Positions 8,889-41,104 of a stretch of 58,319 nt of DNA are shown here, one piece after another. Position numbers and translations under genes: made by a program. Source of the DNA: Bacteroidales bacterium (GTDB lineage: Bacteria; Bacteroidota; Bacteroidia; Bacteroidales; Paludibacteraceae); NCBI GenBank assembly GCA_900767595.1, contig CAAFZS010000052.1, positions 1 through 58,319 of the forward strand. The letters run 5' to 3'. The stretch's first letter is position 1. The number at the start of each line of letters is the position of its first letter. Below the pieces are notes generated by a model. That model made no database searches and was not told the origin of the DNA. It saw only the letters and a program-made list of their open reading frames with translations.

Positions 8889-10044
8889 TATATTGACGAC
8901 GAATATCCTGCCTTACTGGTTGCGGTTGCAGGATAAGGAACAGGGTGGGTTCTACGGGCAGGTGCTCGCAGACGAGACGGTAGTACAGCATGCGAATAGA
9001 GGAGCTATCCTTTATGGTCGTATCCTCTGGACCTTCTCCGCCGCCTATCGCGCGCTGGGAAAGAAGGAGTATCTGGCAGCAGCCAATCAAGCGAAAAACT
9101 ATATCCTCAACCATTTTATCGATAAACAACAGGGTGGGGTATATTGGGAATTGGATTACTTAGGCAACCCTGTCAACGACCGCAAACAGTTCTATGCGTT
9201 GGGTTTTGTCCTCTATGGCTTAACGGAGTATATCCTCGCTACGGGCGATACATCCGTGTTGCCGTACGCTATCGACCTCTACCATTGTATAGAAGACCAT
9301 GCTTGGGACCTGCAATCGGGTGGTTATATCGAGGCTACAGAGCGCGATTGGAGTGCTATCTCCGATTACCGATTGAGTGAGAAAGATGTCAATGCACCTA
9401 AATCGCAAAACACCCACCTGCATATTTTAGAACCCTATACGAATCTCTATCGCGTATGGCCACAAGAGGAAGTGAAACGATCTATCTTGCGTCTGATTGA
9501 CGTCTTCAAAAACCATATCATTCAACCTTCCGGTCACCTTGGCCTGTTTTTCGATTACGACTGGAATGTCTTACAGCGAAGCGGTCTTTCAGCCGAAGGC
9601 GGTCTGTCAGCGCAGCGGTCTGCCAGCGTAGCGGTCCCTTTCAGTTGCGGTCACGATATCGAATTCTCGTGGTTGCTTGATGAAGCCTGTGAGGTCATCG
9701 GTGTGAACGAAGACGAAACGGTACAACGGGTAGCCACGGCAGCCAAAGAGGGACTCTTGTCTGACGGGCGAATGGAAGGAACATGGTGGGAACAATGCGA
9801 GACAATCATCGGTTATGAAAATATCTACCGCCGCTTTGGAGACGAAGAAAGCAAACGCATTGCCGAGCGTTGTTGGCAGGCAACCCAACAACACTTCATC
9901 GACTACGAGCATGGCGAGTGGTGGGAGTATCCCAATCTTCAATCTTCAATCTTCATTCGTCATTCCGACAAGGCCGGCTTCTGGAAATGTCCATACCATA
10001 ATTCACGTTTATGTTTACAAATAATGCTTTATGAAACACACTAA
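8866..10044 (+). CDS. cellobiose 2-epimerase (N-acylglucosamine 2-epimerase superfamily)
   Basis: 392 aa with ILPYWL...GGFYG and an AGE-fold pattern. Only a GTG start is available and it lies inside repeat 8857-8888. Also hosts repeats at 9574 and 9933. Confidence 0.75.
   Translation: MESLEFRDILTTNILPYWLRLQDKEQGGFYGQVLADETVVQHANRGAILYGRILWTFSAAYRALGKKEYLAAANQAKNYILNHFIDKQQGGVYWELDYLGNPVNDRKQFYALGFVLYGLTEYILATGDTSVLPYAIDLYHCIEDHAWDLQSGGYIEATERDWSAISDYRLSEKDVNAPKSQNTHLHILEPYTNLYRVWPQEEVKRSILRLIDVFKNHIIQPSGHLGLFFDYDWNVLQRSGLSAEGGLSAQRSASVAVPFSCGHDIEFSWLLDEACEVIGVNEDETVQRVATAAKEGLLSDGRMEGTWWEQCETIIGYENIYRRFGDEESKRIAERCWQATQQHFIDYEHGEWWEYPNLQSSIFIRHSDKAGFWKCPYHNSRLCLQIMLYETH
9574..9652 (+). repeat. 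mini-repeat family C (16/17-nt unit CAGCGGTCTTTCAGCG), in frame in the epimerase
   Basis: About 5 degenerate units encoding QRSGLSAEGGLSAQRSASVAVPFSCG. Confidence 0.9.
9933..9958 (+). repeat. mini-repeat family A (TCTTCAA heptamer), in frame in the epimerase
   Basis: caatcttcaatcttcaatcttcattc encodes NLQSSIFI. Confidence 0.9.
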
Positions 10045-22338: not shown

Positions 22339-23167
22339 TGTTGTATAAGTTTTTGAATTGTTTCTGAATTAGGAACGAGTGGCAGACGCAACCGATTATG
22401 AATCATTCCCATCTGGCTGAGTACGGTCTTTATCCCACTTGGGTTACCCTCAATAAATAAATATTTAATCAGTTCAGCATAATGCGCCTGTAGTTTGCTA
22501 TCCGCTTGGTGCACAATCTGACCAAACGCATGAGGATAAGCATTCGACGCTACGGATATCAAACCATCCGCTCCTGCGGCCATCCCTTCGGCTGCAAGAC
22601 CATCATCGCCGAGGAATACTTTAAAACCCTTCCCAATCTCTTGTTTGATCTGTTCGAGGTTGCCGGAGGCTTCCTTGATACCCATAATCTTATCGGGAGC
22701 GGCTTCGTAAATACGCATTACCGTTTCGGGCAATAGGTTCACGCCCGTGCGCCCGGGCACGTTATATAATATAATAGGTACAGGACTGACCTTTGCTATC
22801 GCAACGAAATGCTGATACAATCCTTCTTGGGAAGGTTTGTTGTAGTAAGGAGTGACACTCAAAATTGCGGCGCAATCCTTGATTATTGAAGATTGAAGAT
22901 TGAAGATTGAAGATTGAACTGCTTGGGTGTTATTACCTCCCAAACCAAGGACGAGAGGGAGACGACCCTTGACTTTCTCAACGACAAAGTTCCAAACGGA
23001 GGTTTTTTCCTCCTCGGTCATTGTGGCCGCTTCGGCCGTCGTGCCGAGAACCACAAGGAAATCGACCTTGCCATCTATTTGTTTTTGCAAAAGTTTATCC
23101 AATCCTTCATAATCCACTGAACCATCAGGGAGGAAAGGAGTTATTAGTGCAGTACCGAGTCCGTGTA

Positions 23168-36237: not shown

Positions 36238-37605
36238 ATGTTTAAACGTAAACTTGTATATTTAATCCTCCTTTTGGGGGTAGGGGTTGTGTCCGCCCAA
36301 CCGAAGGTGACACTGGAGCAACTGCAACAAGATTGGTCGCGTTACCAAGGACAACGAGTAACGATTACTACACCGCTTGTTTTACGCGGTAGGTATTACG
36401 ACTCGCTCATTGTATCTTCCGAGCGTTTATATGTTCCGGAAGAGCGGGCGGTAGGTCTGGGTGATGGAGACTCCACTTCTTATTGGTATTGGCGTCATTA
36501 TAACGATTCGCTCCGTATCAAACTGCAAGGCAGAATGAGTTTTGATATCAATCTTGGGGCAACGGTTAAGAACCTGACCGCGCAAGTGATGGGGCCTCGT
36601 TGGTTGCAGACAGGAGCGCAAGTAAGATTCAAGAATTTCAAACCCGCTAAACTCGCTAAACAGCCCGCAGGGCGCGCTAAACCAGACCTCACCATCTGTG
36701 CCGCGAATATCCAAAACTATTTCGTTCACGTGGGCGGTTATGCTACTAAACGTAATACACCGGCTCAGCACCAATGGCAATGCGAGAAGACAGCGGCTGC
36801 CTTGACGCGGATAGGAGCGGATATCTATGCTCTTTGCGAGTTAGAACAAGGCTCGTCGGCTCCGGCGGAGTTGGTGGCGCGAATGAACGAACTGAGTCGC
36901 AAAGACCGCTATGCTTTTGTCGTAACCGATACTATCGACCGCGATACTATTTCCGTAGGCTATATATATAATAAGGAACGCGTGCGCCCGCAAGGGGACC
37001 TTATCTTTGCTTATGAGAATAAGAATGATATCTATGCCCATCGGTTTATGATTCAGGCTTTTGAGTATATCCCCACAGAACAATCGTTCTATATATCCCT
37101 CAATCACCCGCGTTCCAAACGGGGTACCCCACAAGAGGCAAATGCCAAACGTGTGGACAATATCAAGCATATCCTGACAGCTATAGATTCCCTACACCTC
37201 TCCTCCTCTACTCCTCTACTCCTATTAGGTGACTACAACTCGTACGGACAAGAAGAACCTTTGCAGATGCTGGTTAAAGCGGGGTATAAGGATATGGTGA
37301 TGGCAATGGATAGCCTCAATTATTCGTATTCGTATAATGCAGAGTGTGGGTATCTGGATAGAGCCTTTGCTAACGAGCCGATGCAGCAGTATATCACCTC
37401 CATCCATCCTATCCATTGGAATACGGACTATTATTATTCTGCTTCTTATTGGAGTAAGTATAATTATAAGAATAATATCCCGCCCACGCAGAAACAACCT
37501 GATATTTGGAAGTGTGTCACTCCTCAAGCGAAGAAGAACCTAATCTTCCGCTACTCTGATCATGACCCGCTCCTTATAACTCTAAAACTAACGACTAATC
37601 ACTAA
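36238..37605 (+). CDS. secreted EEP-family nuclease (paralog of 25655-27229)
   Basis: Signal peptide present. Motifs LLGDYNSY and YSDHDP. Hosts repeats 36640 and 37191; the stop codon lies inside repeat 37582-37626. Confidence 0.7.
   Translation: MFKRKLVYLILLLGVGVVSAQPKVTLEQLQQDWSRYQGQRVTITTPLVLRGRYYDSLIVSSERLYVPEERAVGLGDGDSTSYWYWRHYNDSLRIKLQGRMSFDINLGATVKNLTAQVMGPRWLQTGAQVRFKNFKPAKLAKQPAGRAKPDLTICAANIQNYFVHVGGYATKRNTPAQHQWQCEKTAAALTRIGADIYALCELEQGSSAPAELVARMNELSRKDRYAFVVTDTIDRDTISVGYIYNKERVRPQGDLIFAYENKNDIYAHRFMIQAFEYIPTEQSFYISLNHPRSKRGTPQEANAKRVDNIKHILTAIDSLHLSSSTPLLLLGDYNSYGQEEPLQMLVKAGYKDMVMAMDSLNYSYSYNAECGYLDRAFANEPMQQYITSIHPIHWNTDYYYSASYWSKYNYKNNIPPTQKQPDIWKCVTPQAKKNLIFRYSDHDPLLITLKLTTNH
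36640..36683 (+). repeat. mini-repeat family I (CGCTAAAC octamer-like), in frame in the EEP nuclease
   Basis: aaacccgctaaactcgctaaacagcccgcagggcgcgctaaacc encodes KPAKLAKQPAGRAKP. Confidence 0.65.
37191..37224 (+). repeat. mini-repeat family F, in frame in the EEP nuclease
   Basis: cctacacctctcctcctctactcctctactccta encodes LHLSSSTPLLL. Confidence 0.85.
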
Positions 37606-37626
37606 CGACTAATCACTAACGACTAA
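37582..37626 (+). repeat. mini-repeat family E (14-nt TAACGACTAATCAC x3) spanning the nuclease stop and the ribF start
   Basis: ctaaaactaacgactaatcactaacgactaatcactaacgactaa. The TAA stop at 37603-37605 lies inside it, and its last base is the A of the ribF ATG (37626). Confidence 0.95.
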
Positions 37627-38438
37627 TGAATTATATCGCAACCATAGGCTTCTTTGATGGCGTTCATTTAGGACATCAGTACCTACTTTCCGCTTTGCGG
37701 GAAGAGGCGGCTAAACGTGGGCTTCAGTCTGCGATTATCACGTTTAGTGAGCATCCTAAGAAAGTGCTAAGTTCAGAGGCTAAGCCCTTGCTTACTACCT
37801 ATCAAGAACGTATGGCTATGCTTAAAGGTATGGGGGTGGATGAGATTTTTTGTTTTAATTTTGAACTCATCCATAACCTCTCTGCGACGGAGTTTGAACA
37901 ACTCATCCATGACCGCTGCGGAGTAGAGGTGCTACTCATGGGCTACGACCACCATTTCGGCTGCCCACAATCACCAATCACCAATCACCAATCACCAATC
38001 ACCAATCATCCATTAGAAATCATCCATCTTCCCGAGCGTCCGGGTGACCAACATATCTCTTCTACCCGAATTCGTCAAGCCTTATTGGCAGGCGAGATTG
38101 TGCAAGCTAACGAGATGTTAGGTTATGCCTATCCATTAATCGGCAAAGTGGTGCACGGCAAAGGACTGGGTCGCACAATCGGTTTTCCTACTGCGAATAT
38201 CGAACTCGAACCCGATAAACTCATTCCCGCTCCCGGGGTATATGTTGCCGAATGGAACTTCCGTCGCGTACTACTCAATATCAACGATACGATTGAGATG
38301 TACGTTCCTCAGTTTGAAGGGGACCTTTATGACCAAGTGGTGATGGTAGAACTTATCGCACGTATTCGAGGCGAACAACATTTTGACAATTTAGATCAAC
38401 TGAAATCACAAATACAAAAAGATTTATTGCAATTATGA
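37626..38438 (+). CDS. ribF: bifunctional riboflavin kinase / FMN adenylyltransferase
   Basis: Contains IGFFDGVHLGHQ, GYDHHFG, ISSTRIR and GFPTANI. Only 270 aa. Hosts the heptamer array 37965-38009. Confidence 0.85.
   Translation: MNYIATIGFFDGVHLGHQYLLSALREEAAKRGLQSAIITFSEHPKKVLSSEAKPLLTTYQERMAMLKGMGVDEIFCFNFELIHNLSATEFEQLIHDRCGVEVLLMGYDHHFGCPQSPITNHQSPITNHPLEIIHLPERPGDQHISSTRIRQALLAGEIVQANEMLGYAYPLIGKVVHGKGLGRTIGFPTANIELEPDKLIPAPGVYVAEWNFRRVLLNINDTIEMYVPQFEGDLYDQVVMVELIARIRGEQHFDNLDQLKSQIQKDLLQL
37965..38009 (+). repeat. mini-repeat family D (CAATCAC x5 perfect plus 1 variant), in frame in ribF
   Basis: ccacaatcaccaatcaccaatcaccaatcaccaatcaccaatcat encodes PQSPITNHQSPITNH. Confidence 0.95.
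38403..38420 (+). repeat. possible family D (CACAAAT) fragment in the ribF 3' end
   Basis: aaatcacaaatacaaaaa encodes KSQIQK; compare TSQIKH in GH94. Confidence 0.35.
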
Positions 38439-41104
38439 AAAAAATTAGTCTTATAATCCTATTATTATTCTTCATTAGTCAATCCACAATACTCGGCGCT
38501 GTTCGTTCCGCGGAGCAAGCCGCTGCATTGGCAGCCGAGTTTATGAATACCAATGCGGTCGGACCTCACAAAGCTCCGGCTACCGCGGCCACGATGCAAC
38601 TCGTTCATCAAATGCCTAAGTTAGCAAGCGAAGAGCCCGCCTTCTATGTGTTCAATAAGACGGATAATGACGGCTTTGTCATCGTCAGTGCCGATGACCG
38701 AACAGAGGATATTATTGGCTACTCGGATGAGGGACAGATAGGGGAAACCATCAATCCTAACCTCGCTTTCTGGTTGCGTGGTGTTCAAAAAGCTATCTCT
38801 GCTATCAATGATAGTACGGTGATCCATAAAGCACCTATGGCTACGACCGCTATAGAACCGCTTCTAAAGAATAAGGATGGCAAAGAGATTACGTGGGATC
38901 AAGAGACTCCCTATTATAACCTCTGTCCTAAAGATGCTAATGGCTATCTCTGTTTGACGGGGTGCGTCGCCACCGCGGCAGCCCAAATAATGTATAAATG
39001 GCGCTATCCCGAACAAGGCATAGGGACCCATTCTTACACGTGGGAGAACTCGAAAGGAACAAGGAAAACCCTATCCGTAGATTATGAAAGCACTACCTAC
39101 GATTGGGACAATATGTTACCTTCCTATTCCCGCATATCGGCTACTAATGCTCAAAAAACAGCGGTGGCAACGCTTATGTACCACGCCGGTGTAGCTTGTG
39201 ATATGCAATATAGTTCTGAAGGCAGTGGTGCCTATACCGATGATATGGCACAAGGGCTAATCGACCATTTTGGCTATGCAGTTAAAAAGTTCGTTACGAC
39301 CTATTCGTCTTATTATTATCCTACGGACTTCAAACCGGCAGAATTTAAAGTAACAGTTGCTAAGATAACCGAGTATTTCAACCAAGACCTCGAAGAGGGA
39401 CTCCCTATCCTTATGGGCGGGGCTGATCAATACAGCGGGGGACATGAGTTTGTTTGCGATGGACGGGATGCAAAAGGATATTTCCATATCAACTGGGGTT
39501 GGGAAGGCGAAGGTAATGCCTATTTCTCTTTGAGTTCGTTGTCGGTGGACGGGTATAACTTCTCCTCCAATATTGATGCTGTCATCGGTCTTCGTCCGGC
39601 GAAGATTGATACGGTGCACGTCACTTCTATCGCTATCAAGCCCCAAACCGCTACACTGAAAATCAACGAACGGGTAACCATCGTTCCTACACTCCAACCG
39701 CAAAACGCCACCATCAAGACCGTCTTCTGGTCCTCTTCTGACCAAAATATAGCACAAGTCTCCTCTTCGGGTATCGTACGCGCTATAGGTCCCGGACAAG
39801 CTACCATCACCGCTACTACGAAAGAGGGCGGCTTCCAAGCCACTTGCGCTATCACCGTTACCGACGAGTTTGTCCCTTCCGACGTGTTTGAACTCGTGAC
39901 CGATGCGGCTGAACTTAGGGAGGGGGACGATATCATCATTGAGGCTACATATAGTAGTGTGCACTATTGTGCTACCAACGATATGCACGCTACTAAAAAC
40001 TCCAACTATACCGATGTCGAACAAGTGCAGATCGTCGATGAGGTCATCAGTTTAGCCGATGGCTCCCATGTGGCTATCTTCAAACTCGGAATAGAAGATG
40101 GCGCTTGGACACTGACCAATGCCGCAGGAAGGAAACTGGGTGCTACGGCTGCCAAGAAACTCAGTCTCGACGAGGGTACAGTCACTTGGACATTGGATGT
40201 GAAAGATACCTATGCTACTGTCGCCAGTACGACAACCGAGTATGGACGTCTCTTATATAACAATAACAATAATAGTCCCCGTTTCAGTAACTATACCTCG
40301 ACTACTTTGTCAACGATGGTTCTGCCGCAAATCTATGTTCGTAGGAACTCCAAACCGGTGGCAGTAGTGAAAGTGACGGGGGTCGAACTCGGCCAATCAA
40401 CGGCTCAGATGCTCGTTGGACAGGAAATCTTCCTTTACTATAGCGTCAAACCCGCTACCGCTACCAACCAGTCTGTGATGTGGACATCTTCCAATGAGAA
40501 CGTTGTCAAAGTCGATCCTTCCCATACTTCTTTGGAGGATGATAAGACTTGTGCTATCACGGCTCTTGCCGAAGGCGAAGCAACAGTAACGATTAAGACC
40601 CTCGACGGTGGGTTTACAGCTTCCTGTGTCGTGACGGTTACGGAACAACCGGTGGTACCGACGGATACGACTTTTGTCTCCGCTTCCGAAGCTAAGCGTA
40701 TCGGTATGGCTCTGCCGGCAGGAGACCAAACAAAAGACTTCTATGGGGTTAAGGGGTATGTTACGGTACAAAACACCACTCAATATCAGGGTTTCTGGTT
40801 AGATGATGAACCCGTCACGGGTAAGGAGACTTTCCAAGGCTTCCAATGTACGATACCGGATGATCACATCACCTTGCGAGTAGGGGAGTATGTCTGCCTT
40901 TACGGGTATATCATGAACTATAACAACGAGAAGGCACAGATTAAGAATGGTACTGTCGAACTCCTCGATGCCCCCACCGATTTACCCTACTCCTATCAGC
41001 CTTTCATCCATTCATCCTTTCATCCTATTAAAGTATTGGAGTCCGGCCAAATCCTCTTCCTTCGTGGTTCCAAGAAGTTTAACGTATTAGGATTCGAGCA
41101 GTAA
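38435..41104 (+). CDS. C10-family (streptopain-like) cysteine peptidase with Big_2 domains
   Basis: Catalytic Cys context LTGCVATAAAQIMY and His context GGHEFVCDG. Two Big_2-like modules (ATITATT.../ATVTIKT...). Signal peptide present. Confidence 0.75.
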   Translation: MKKISLIILLLFFISQSTILGAVRSAEQAAALAAEFMNTNAVGPHKAPATAATMQLVHQMPKLASEEPAFYVFNKTDNDGFVIVSADDRTEDIIGYSDEGQIGETINPNLAFWLRGVQKAISAINDSTVIHKAPMATTAIEPLLKNKDGKEITWDQETPYYNLCPKDANGYLCLTGCVATAAAQIMYKWRYPEQGIGTHSYTWENSKGTRKTLSVDYESTTYDWDNMLPSYSRISATNAQKTAVATLMYHAGVACDMQYSSEGSGAYTDDMAQGLIDHFGYAVKKFVTTYSSYYYPTDFKPAEFKVTVAKITEYFNQDLEEGLPILMGGADQYSGGHEFVCDGRDAKGYFHINWGWEGEGNAYFSLSSLSVDGYNFSSNIDAVIGLRPAKIDTVHVTSIAIKPQTATLKINERVTIVPTLQPQNATIKTVFWSSSDQNIAQVSSSGIVRAIGPGQATITATTKEGGFQATCAITVTDEFVPSDVFELVTDAAELREGDDIIIEATYSSVHYCATNDMHATKNSNYTDVEQVQIVDEVISLADGSHVAIFKLGIEDGAWTLTNAAGRKLGATAAKKLSLDEGTVTWTLDVKDTYATVASTTTEYGRLLYNNNNNSPRFSNYTSTTLSTMVLPQIYVRRNSKPVAVVKVTGVELGQSTAQMLVGQEIFLYYSVKPATATNQSVMWTSSNENVVKVDPSHTSLEDDKTCAITALAEGEATVTIKTLDGGFTASCVVTVTEQPVVPTDTTFVSASEAKRIGMALPAGDQTKDFYGVKGYVTVQNTTQYQGFWLDDEPVTGKETFQGFQCTIPDDHITLRVGEYVCLYGYIMNYNNEKAQIKNGTVELLDAPTDLPYSYQPFIHSSFHPIKVLESGQILFLRGSKKFNVLGFEQ
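38468..38493 (+). repeat. composite family A/D fragment in the C10 peptidase signal peptide
   Basis: attcttcattagtcaatccacaatac encodes FFISQSTI. Confidence 0.45.
40985..41025 (+). repeat. family F fragment plus a TTCATCC(W) octamer x3, in frame near the C10 peptidase C-terminus
   Basis: ccctactcctatcagcctttcatccattcatcctttcatcc encodes PYSYQPFIHSSFHP. Confidence 0.75.

Follow-up and report, generated by a model that had tools for sequence, protein, structure and literature searches.

An in-frame heptanucleotide repeat array within ribF of a clade of uncultured Paludibacteraceae bacteria

Introduction

Phase-variable contingency loci built on simple sequence repeats are found in dispensable genes, typically those with surface or host-interaction roles, and microsatellites with non-triplet units are not expected to last in essential coding sequence. 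Heptanucleotides are the commonest unit of long simple sequence repeats (LSSRs) in several bacterial groups and are reported to be mostly intergenic (PMC4679880); according to the summary given in the same source, LSSRs of 5–11 nt rarely have non-triplet units in coding regions (Mrazek, Guo & Shah 2007, summarised in PMC4679880). An intragenic tract of the heptanucleotide AAGACTC acts as an ON/OFF switch in neuO of Escherichia coli K1 (PMC8653822), and heptamer tracts in the hmw promoters of Haemophilus influenzae are described as variable in copy number both between and within strains (PMC8262952). Rickettsia palindromic elements (RPEs) lie in frame in many housekeeping genes (PMC10969869).

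Here, we describe a perfect CAATCAC array inside ribF of an uncultured Paludibacteraceae bacterium of the gut and compare it with these systems. Like Mrazek-type LSSRs and the TAACTGA heptamers of Beggiatoaceae, the heptamer arrays of this organism are over-abundant, scattered, phylogenetically patchy, and often placed just upstream of start codons, the last of which has a local example in a second array in the ribF leader. Unlike the mainly intergenic LSSRs, roughly a quarter of the arrays here lie deep in open frames, essential enzymes included, and eight species have preserved the reading frame through the one in ribF. The neuO tract resembles it in being a coding 7-nt repeat translated in three phases that gives a full-length product at frame-compatible unit numbers only. 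However, neuO, a phage-borne gene for surface modification, is dispensable, and its tract of about 38 units at the 5′ end switches at percent-level rates, whereas ribF is essential, carries 6 units mid-gene, and has no OFF allele among those seen in eight species genomes. The hmw heptamers act at the level of transcription, from a promoter, and not in the coding sequence of an enzyme. RPEs, like the arrays described here, form a repeat family that sits in frame in unrelated housekeeping genes, encodes a fold-compatible peptide, and persists across species; yet RPEs are palindromic, measure about 150 bp, and specify a conserved peptide, whereas the present arrays consist of 7-mers in direct tandem, contain almost no G on one strand (2.3%) and so cannot form hairpins, and at a single orthologous site differ in both unit and length. 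The ribF array, a direct-repeat microsatellite held long in frame in an essential enzyme, matches none of these systems exactly; what is new here is its ribF-specific history.

The ribF gene and its array

The host genome is a 1.75-Mb, 96% complete draft MAG in 94 contigs; MAGs from horse faeces are among its sister species. The window, i.e. the whole stretch of DNA analysed, is its 58,319-nt contig C52. Coordinates of the features around the array are given in Table 1.

Table 1. Features at and around ribF (positions in the window).
Feature	Position	Strand	Basis and remarks
Endonuclease/exonuclease/phosphatase-family gene, upstream of ribF	36238..37605	+	ORF and Pfam; last codons (…LKLTTNH-stop) from leader array
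Second array, unit ACTAACGACTAATC x2.9	37587..37627	+	TRF; ribF leader
ribF, bifunctional riboflavin kinase/FMN adenylyltransferase	37626..38438	+	270 aa; Pfam, TIGR00083, single copy
Hypervariable repeat-coded segment CPQSPITNHQSPITNHP	37962..38012	+	Codons 113–129; alignments, alleles, model
Perfect heptamer array CAATCAC x5.9	37968..38008	+	TRF; CAATCAT, the sixth unit, runs to 38009
C10 peptidase gene with Spi inhibitor and Big_2 domains, downstream of ribF	38435..41104	+	ORF and Pfam

The RibF product matches Pfam FAD_syn (PF06574) over residues 3–120 (109.7 bits, 1.6e-31) and Flavokinase (PF01687) over residues 165–267 (100.5 bits, 9.7e-29), and scores 201.9 bits against TIGR00083, for which the cut-off is 184.35. 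Both domains are intact. The nucleotidyltransferase motifs H14-L-G-H17 (HxGH), G106-Y-D-H-H-F-G112 (GxDxxFG), and S145-S-T-R-I-R150 (SSTxxR) are present, as are the kinase motif P188-T-A-N191 (PTAN) and the catalytic glutamate E224, which aligns with E268 of 2X0K-type chains. A profile search of the 96%-complete genome returned a single match each for Flavokinase and FAD_syn, both of them ribF; the archaeal CTP-dependent riboflavin kinase (ribK) was not found in the genome, and the two further nucleotidyltransferase-fold genes are NadD and CoaD. Because there is no second Flavokinase or FAD_syn match, no ribK, and no nucleotidyltransferase of this fold other than NadD and CoaD, ribF is, as judged from these searches, the sole visible route to FMN and FAD in this genome. 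A first-pass annotation of the window had recommended a check for a second ribF or for separate ribK/ribL genes; the searches found none in the genome, and ribF is its single RFK/FMNAT gene.

Positions 37965–38009 read CCA, then CAATCAC five times, then CAATCAT. Tandem Repeats Finder (TRF) reports period 7, 5.9 copies, 100% matches, and a score of 82, and the 34 consecutive matches at lag 7 have an arithmetical chance of about 4^-34 per site. Sequence and TRF thus agree with the first-pass annotation in placing five perfect units and one variant inside ribF, and the translation agrees with its placement of the array between the GYDHHFG and ISSTRIR blocks, where it encodes P114-QSPITNHQSPITNH (P-QSPITNH-QSPITNH).

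The leader array has a unit of 14 nt (two heptamers). The stop codon of the upstream gene falls within the array, whose end is the ribF ATG. Its copy number is polymorphic (3 in the window and 1 in L033, a strain at 96% identity); of the sister species, four have no such array and two have arrays built from different units. The array might affect translation initiation or the C-terminus of the upstream protein. On the other side of ribF, the start of the C10 peptidase gene overlaps the ribF stop (ATGA).

A native segment replaced by repeat-coded residues

In alignments with orthologs from the genus and the order, the 17 repeat-coded residues (CPQSPITNHQSPITNHP) stand in the place of a conserved segment of about 18 residues, SDRLTxFADYxxxAxxxG, which is kept by the 45 other RibFs examined. 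The equivalent region in solved FAD synthetases is a short helix that follows GxDxxFG (TAEDLKNYF in 3OP1 and TADSLRQICQS in 2X0K-type chains). These alignments indicate that the array replaced a native segment of about equal length rather than inserting into it, which bears out the earlier suggestion of replacement rather than interruption. The same suggestion had been tied to the short length of the protein (270 aa), a tie that does not survive the alignments: 17 residues stand for about 18, and the shortness comes mostly from a 9-aa loss in a kinase loop (GTNPTVGxx) together with short termini.

That 9-residue kinase loop (window ~38271–38285, RibF residues ~216–220) is absent from the array-bearing clade, and an unrelated group of the genus (L005, L007, and L008) is also without a similar stretch. 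In-frame low-complexity inserts of 13 to ~80 aa occur in RibFs of further species within the genus, namely L021 (G006), L018 (G021), and L006 (G009); these lie in the kinase domain, between the strands preceding the NIG motif, a site other than that of the array.

An AlphaFold model of RibF built from a 94-sequence alignment has a pLDDT of 89.6 and a pTM of 0.86, and Foldseek aligns it to the FAD synthetases 3OP1, 5FO1, 1S4M, and 2X0K at TM 0.81–0.86. Residues 111–127 are its sole stretch with pLDDT <50, and residues 106–130 have no secondary structure assigned. The best reading of this model is that the repeat peptide forms a disordered loop at the surface.

Distribution and age of the array

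Relatives of this RibF in the protein database form one group at 68–96% identity (265–279 aa), beyond which matches fall to ≤53% identity and have the native segment. In the 267 genomes of the genus, RibFs at 70–80% identity come from seven sister species, and all others are at ≤55%. In DNA, all eight species of the clade (that of the window and the seven sisters) have a heptamer array at exactly the same ribF site, with units that differ from row to row: CAATCAC in the window, CAATCCA in a 91% strain, ACCAATC in G174, CAATCTT in G242, CAATCAG in G165, AATCACA in G173, ACTCTAA in G139, and CAAACAC/CAGACAC in G163. The lag-7 DNA identity of the segment is 0.55–0.79 in ten rows of the clade and 0.15–0.37 in the other 45 RibFs. 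A preset threshold of 0.6 missed two array rows, L033 (0.58) and L043 (0.55), and arrays were assigned to one clade by the natural gap (non-clade rows ≤0.37) rather than by that threshold. A tree of the sequences with the segment masked out unites the ten array rows in a single clade (support 100/99).

Between sister species, dS is >1 or saturated. Because all eight species carry a heptamer array at the site and dS is saturated, the array is not a recent arrival; from this distribution, the replacement appears to have happened once, long ago, and the array to have turned over since. The perfect copies had at first been taken to imply recent expansion or homogenization, of which homogenization fits (a strain at 96% identity and species G141 have an allele of the same length, described below), whereas recent arrival does not fit the eight-species clade and its saturated dS.

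A split ribF in G017 (L029) was considered as a repeat-linked case and rejected, since it has a plain 1-nt frameshift in a T-run (CATCGTTTTCGGC) and an intact native segment. This frameshift is probably a sequencing error or the mark of a pseudogene, with no relation to repeats.

Strain alleles, homogenization, and exchange

Members of the 90%-identity clusters have, at the protein level, many different array alleles. In two cases, the difference between conspecific strains is exactly 7 aa, i.e. three units. One of them, known at the protein level only, is P0126, a protein of 263 aa with a 10-aa segment (CPQSPITNHP), compared with 270 aa in P0122 and in the window; simulated loss of three units from the window sequence gives a 263-aa product with the same repeat segment as P0126. 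The other, likewise known from proteins only, is the 7-residue step between P0131 (SSIVNLQSSIVNLQSS) and P0005 (SSIVNLQSS). Further strain alleles have other unit sequences or a small GC hairpin within the array. Length differences between species are not always multiples of 7 aa, so whole-unit slippage is not the sole process.

The allele CAATCAC AAAATGC (CAATCAC)4 is common to the 96%-identical strain (L033) and species G141. The perfect array of the window has the same length and differs from it in the second unit alone, and it looks, by this comparison, like a recently homogenized form of an allele with one odd unit. Over ~90 nt around the array (ribF nt ~313–400), L033 and G141 (L040) are 96–98% identical, vs 53–87% elsewhere in ribF; the closest relative of G141 on the tree is G174, which bears another array allele. 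This pattern suggests that array alleles have been exchanged across species by short-patch recombination.

Selection on the flanks and maintenance of the reading frame

In nine DNA sequences, the flanks always encode 112 and 141 aa, and the segment alone varies in length (12–26 aa). Over the whole flanks, dN/dS is 0.04–0.15; it is ~0.04–0.15 for FMNAT residues 1–112 in nearly all pairs and 0.04–0.16 for the RFK part. Invariant across 94 homologs are H14, G16, H17, GYD108, F111, G112, S145, S146, R150, PTAN188–191, E224, and R248. Purifying selection, as estimated from these sequences, acts strongly on both RibF modules, and because dN/dS is 0.04–0.16 on both halves and these residues are conserved, we infer that both catalytic activities are retained.

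When one or two units are added or removed in a simulation, the product is cut to 127–142 aa and has neither the SSTRIR motif nor the kinase domain, just as the first-pass annotation had predicted in warning of a frameshift upstream of the riboflavin-kinase domain. The hazard is real as a mutational load; the stronger sense of a gene at risk, or of a switch, is not upheld, since the variation seen is frame-preserving only. Every allele seen is in frame; protein-database searches are blind to frameshifted alleles, and the unbiased sample is therefore the eight species genomes. In all eight (8/8), a six-frame search that reads through stops found ribF in one open frame, with no out-of-frame allele (0/8). 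A flank-gap-flank DNA pattern scan for out-of-frame alleles in JGI metagenome contigs gave no match. Judging by the alleles in hand, one- and two-unit changes appear to be purged by selection, and we infer that out-of-frame ribF variants are lethal. Because copy number among strains changes by frame-preserving steps only, in the alleles seen, these observations argue for a tolerated repeat selected to stay in frame rather than for a gene at risk or a switch.

Proposed history of the array

We consider it likely that a heptanucleotide microsatellite has long been tolerated within this essential gene. It would date from the ancestor of a small clade of uncultured Paludibacteraceae, in which the short helix segment after GxDxxFG of the FMNAT module gave way to a 7-nt tandem array. 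As 7 is not divisible by 3, such an array would be read in all three phases and yield a peptide with a period of seven residues (QSPITNH in the window), forming a disordered surface loop of 10–26 residues whose sequence would be immaterial. The array DNA would then evolve by replication slippage, the presumed mechanism of unit change, which adds or removes units, and also by point changes followed by homogenization, while short-patch recombination would move array alleles between strains and even between species. One- and two-unit changes would truncate RibF and be removed by selection, and three-unit steps and other 3n indels would persist; only frame-preserving variants would last because RibF is the sole FMN/FAD route and truncating changes are selected out.

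On this reading of the array as a tolerated microsatellite, one ribF site has been occupied by an array through the divergence of at least eight species, with unit and length changing freely and the frame never, in the alleles seen. The locus would be a natural experiment in how much of a nucleotidyltransferase fold a disordered loop can replace, and a clean readout of selection filtering slippage mutations, since 3n steps alone survive. As a handy marker, it could also help to type strains and trace recombination in these uncultured herbivore-gut bacteria. For annotators, the caution is that repeats of this kind in MAGs should be taken as genuine rather than as frameshift-prone errors of assembly.

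Alternative explanations

That the perfect copies, or their number, were made by the assembler of the MAG might be thought of because repeats are hard to assemble and the genome is a draft of 94 contigs. Yet the array spans just 41 nt, alleles related to it are present in over 20 independent assemblies and in 8 species, and the six-unit peptide is identical in an independent strain assembly, P0123. Because the protein of P0123 differs elsewhere while its six-unit peptide is the same, the array is, on this sequence comparison, not an assembly artefact, an origin to which we give practically no credence. Loss of the helix beside active-site motifs, in a protein that is short, could instead indicate that the FMNAT half is decaying, the array having destroyed the adenylyltransferase while the kinase half alone is maintained. 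This is highly improbable, given that in nearly all pairs dN/dS is just as low for residues 1–112 (~0.04–0.15) as for the kinase half, that every FMNAT motif residue is invariant, and that no other FAD synthase is present.

A phase-variable contingency locus, in which the gain and loss of units would make part of the population switch ribF, or at any rate its kinase half, OFF and ON, is what the truncating effect of one- or two-unit changes, the perfect tract in the window strain, and the varying copy number between strains might lead one to expect, and neuO shows that intragenic heptamers can work in this ON/OFF manner (PMC8653822). We regard it as very unlikely, however: ribF is the sole FMN/FAD route, where contingency loci are expected to be dispensable; no OFF allele was found in the eight species genomes (0/8); the six units lie mid-gene, at codon 114, and not in a tract of ~38 at the 5′ end as in neuO; both modules are under strong purifying selection; and like arrays occur in dnaE, murF, and dapA, genes that cannot be off. 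Hardly more likely is a selected functional linker, whose length or composition would tune FMNAT activity, oligomerization, or contacts between modules, so that its variation would be adaptive. The confinement of loop length to 10–26 residues, the position between two nucleotide-binding motifs, and the exchange of alleles between species would all suit such a linker; the peptides, however, are unconserved (QSPITNH, QSSIVNL, STLNSTL, TKHQTPN, and QQSAISN) and dictated by the DNA unit, the segment is modelled as disordered, and unrelated enzymes carry identical repeat peptides.

Heptamer arrays across the genome

The ribF array is one case of a genome-wide habit. In the genome, 67 perfect period-7 arrays reach three copies or more, vs ~0.01 expected, and TRF gives 351 period-7 rows, vs 19 in a Markov shuffle, i.e. 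tandem units exceed, in length and in number, what composition predicts, as in Mrazek-type LSSRs. Period-7 arrays of at least three copies number 298; about half are outside open frames and 82 (roughly a quarter) sit at least 60 codons deep in one. The array units have 2.3% G on one strand. Inside genes, the G-poor strand is not always the sense strand (59 sense vs 43 antisense), and unit consensus sequences are not clearly enriched for stop-free units. Arrays of the CAATCNN type are present in 103 of the 267 genomes of the genus.

Among the array-bearing genes checked, Pfam confirmed DnaE, DapA, MurF, ComEC, and LD-carboxypeptidase; a ketoacyl synthase (KAS) and an MMPL protein likewise bear arrays. 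The array occupies an interdomain linker in DnaE and LD-carboxypeptidase and falls inside the domain match in DapA (window 22885–22918), MurF, and ComEC. Compared with RPE/MITE-like elements, these arrays, being direct repeats, have neither palindromic nor terminal-inverted-repeat structure, and they share with such elements the in-frame presence in unrelated housekeeping genes (DnaE, DapA, MurF, ComEC, LD-carboxypeptidase, KAS, and MMPL).

Going beyond passive slippage, the arrays might propagate themselves or be actively maintained, as a repeat system of this Paludibacteraceae genus. This is suggested because a small set of units, almost G-free on one strand, is shared; because disordered loops replace structured segments of essential enzymes; and because arrays persist in frame over speciation and undergo short-patch exchange between species. 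We hold this only tentatively and think it rather unlikely. If true, it would make the system a microsatellite counterpart of RPEs, reshaping protein loops genome-wide.

Other repeat observations

In dapA (dihydrodipicolinate synthase), a − strand gene of the window, the in-frame CTTCAAT array at 22885–22918 encodes 12 residues within the DHDPS domain match. DapA looks like a second enzyme of the window in which a structured segment has been replaced by a repeat.

A small GCCC-N3-4-GGGC hairpin (e.g. AGCCCTTCGGGCG) lies within or adjoins several heptamer arrays, including two ribF alleles (L036 and L043); other places in the window's genome (G000) are C20:30552–30589, C33:43691–43721, and C67:28577–28634, among others. 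Generic GC hairpins near arrays are weakly enriched (5.8% vs 4.1% background), and the GCCC-N3-4-GGGC motif itself recurs.

A second repeat family has 16-nt units, with TRF rows in the window at 9574, 14155, 17976, 50817, and 51784. It is translated in frame as QRSGRTAQRS-like peptides in G000 C29:6478–8520, C92:7841–9076, and C39:2333–3124; its hosts are an amylase-like ORF, MurF, and a glycosyltransferase-like ORF, the last without a Pfam match.

At G000 C29:9909–14504, a CAATCAC-type array (QSPITNHQSPI) joins two apparent genes, an apparent RND efflux pump and a putative outer-membrane-factor lipoprotein, into one open frame of 1533 aa. This is either a real fusion or the effect of an array that has wiped out the signals for stop and start.
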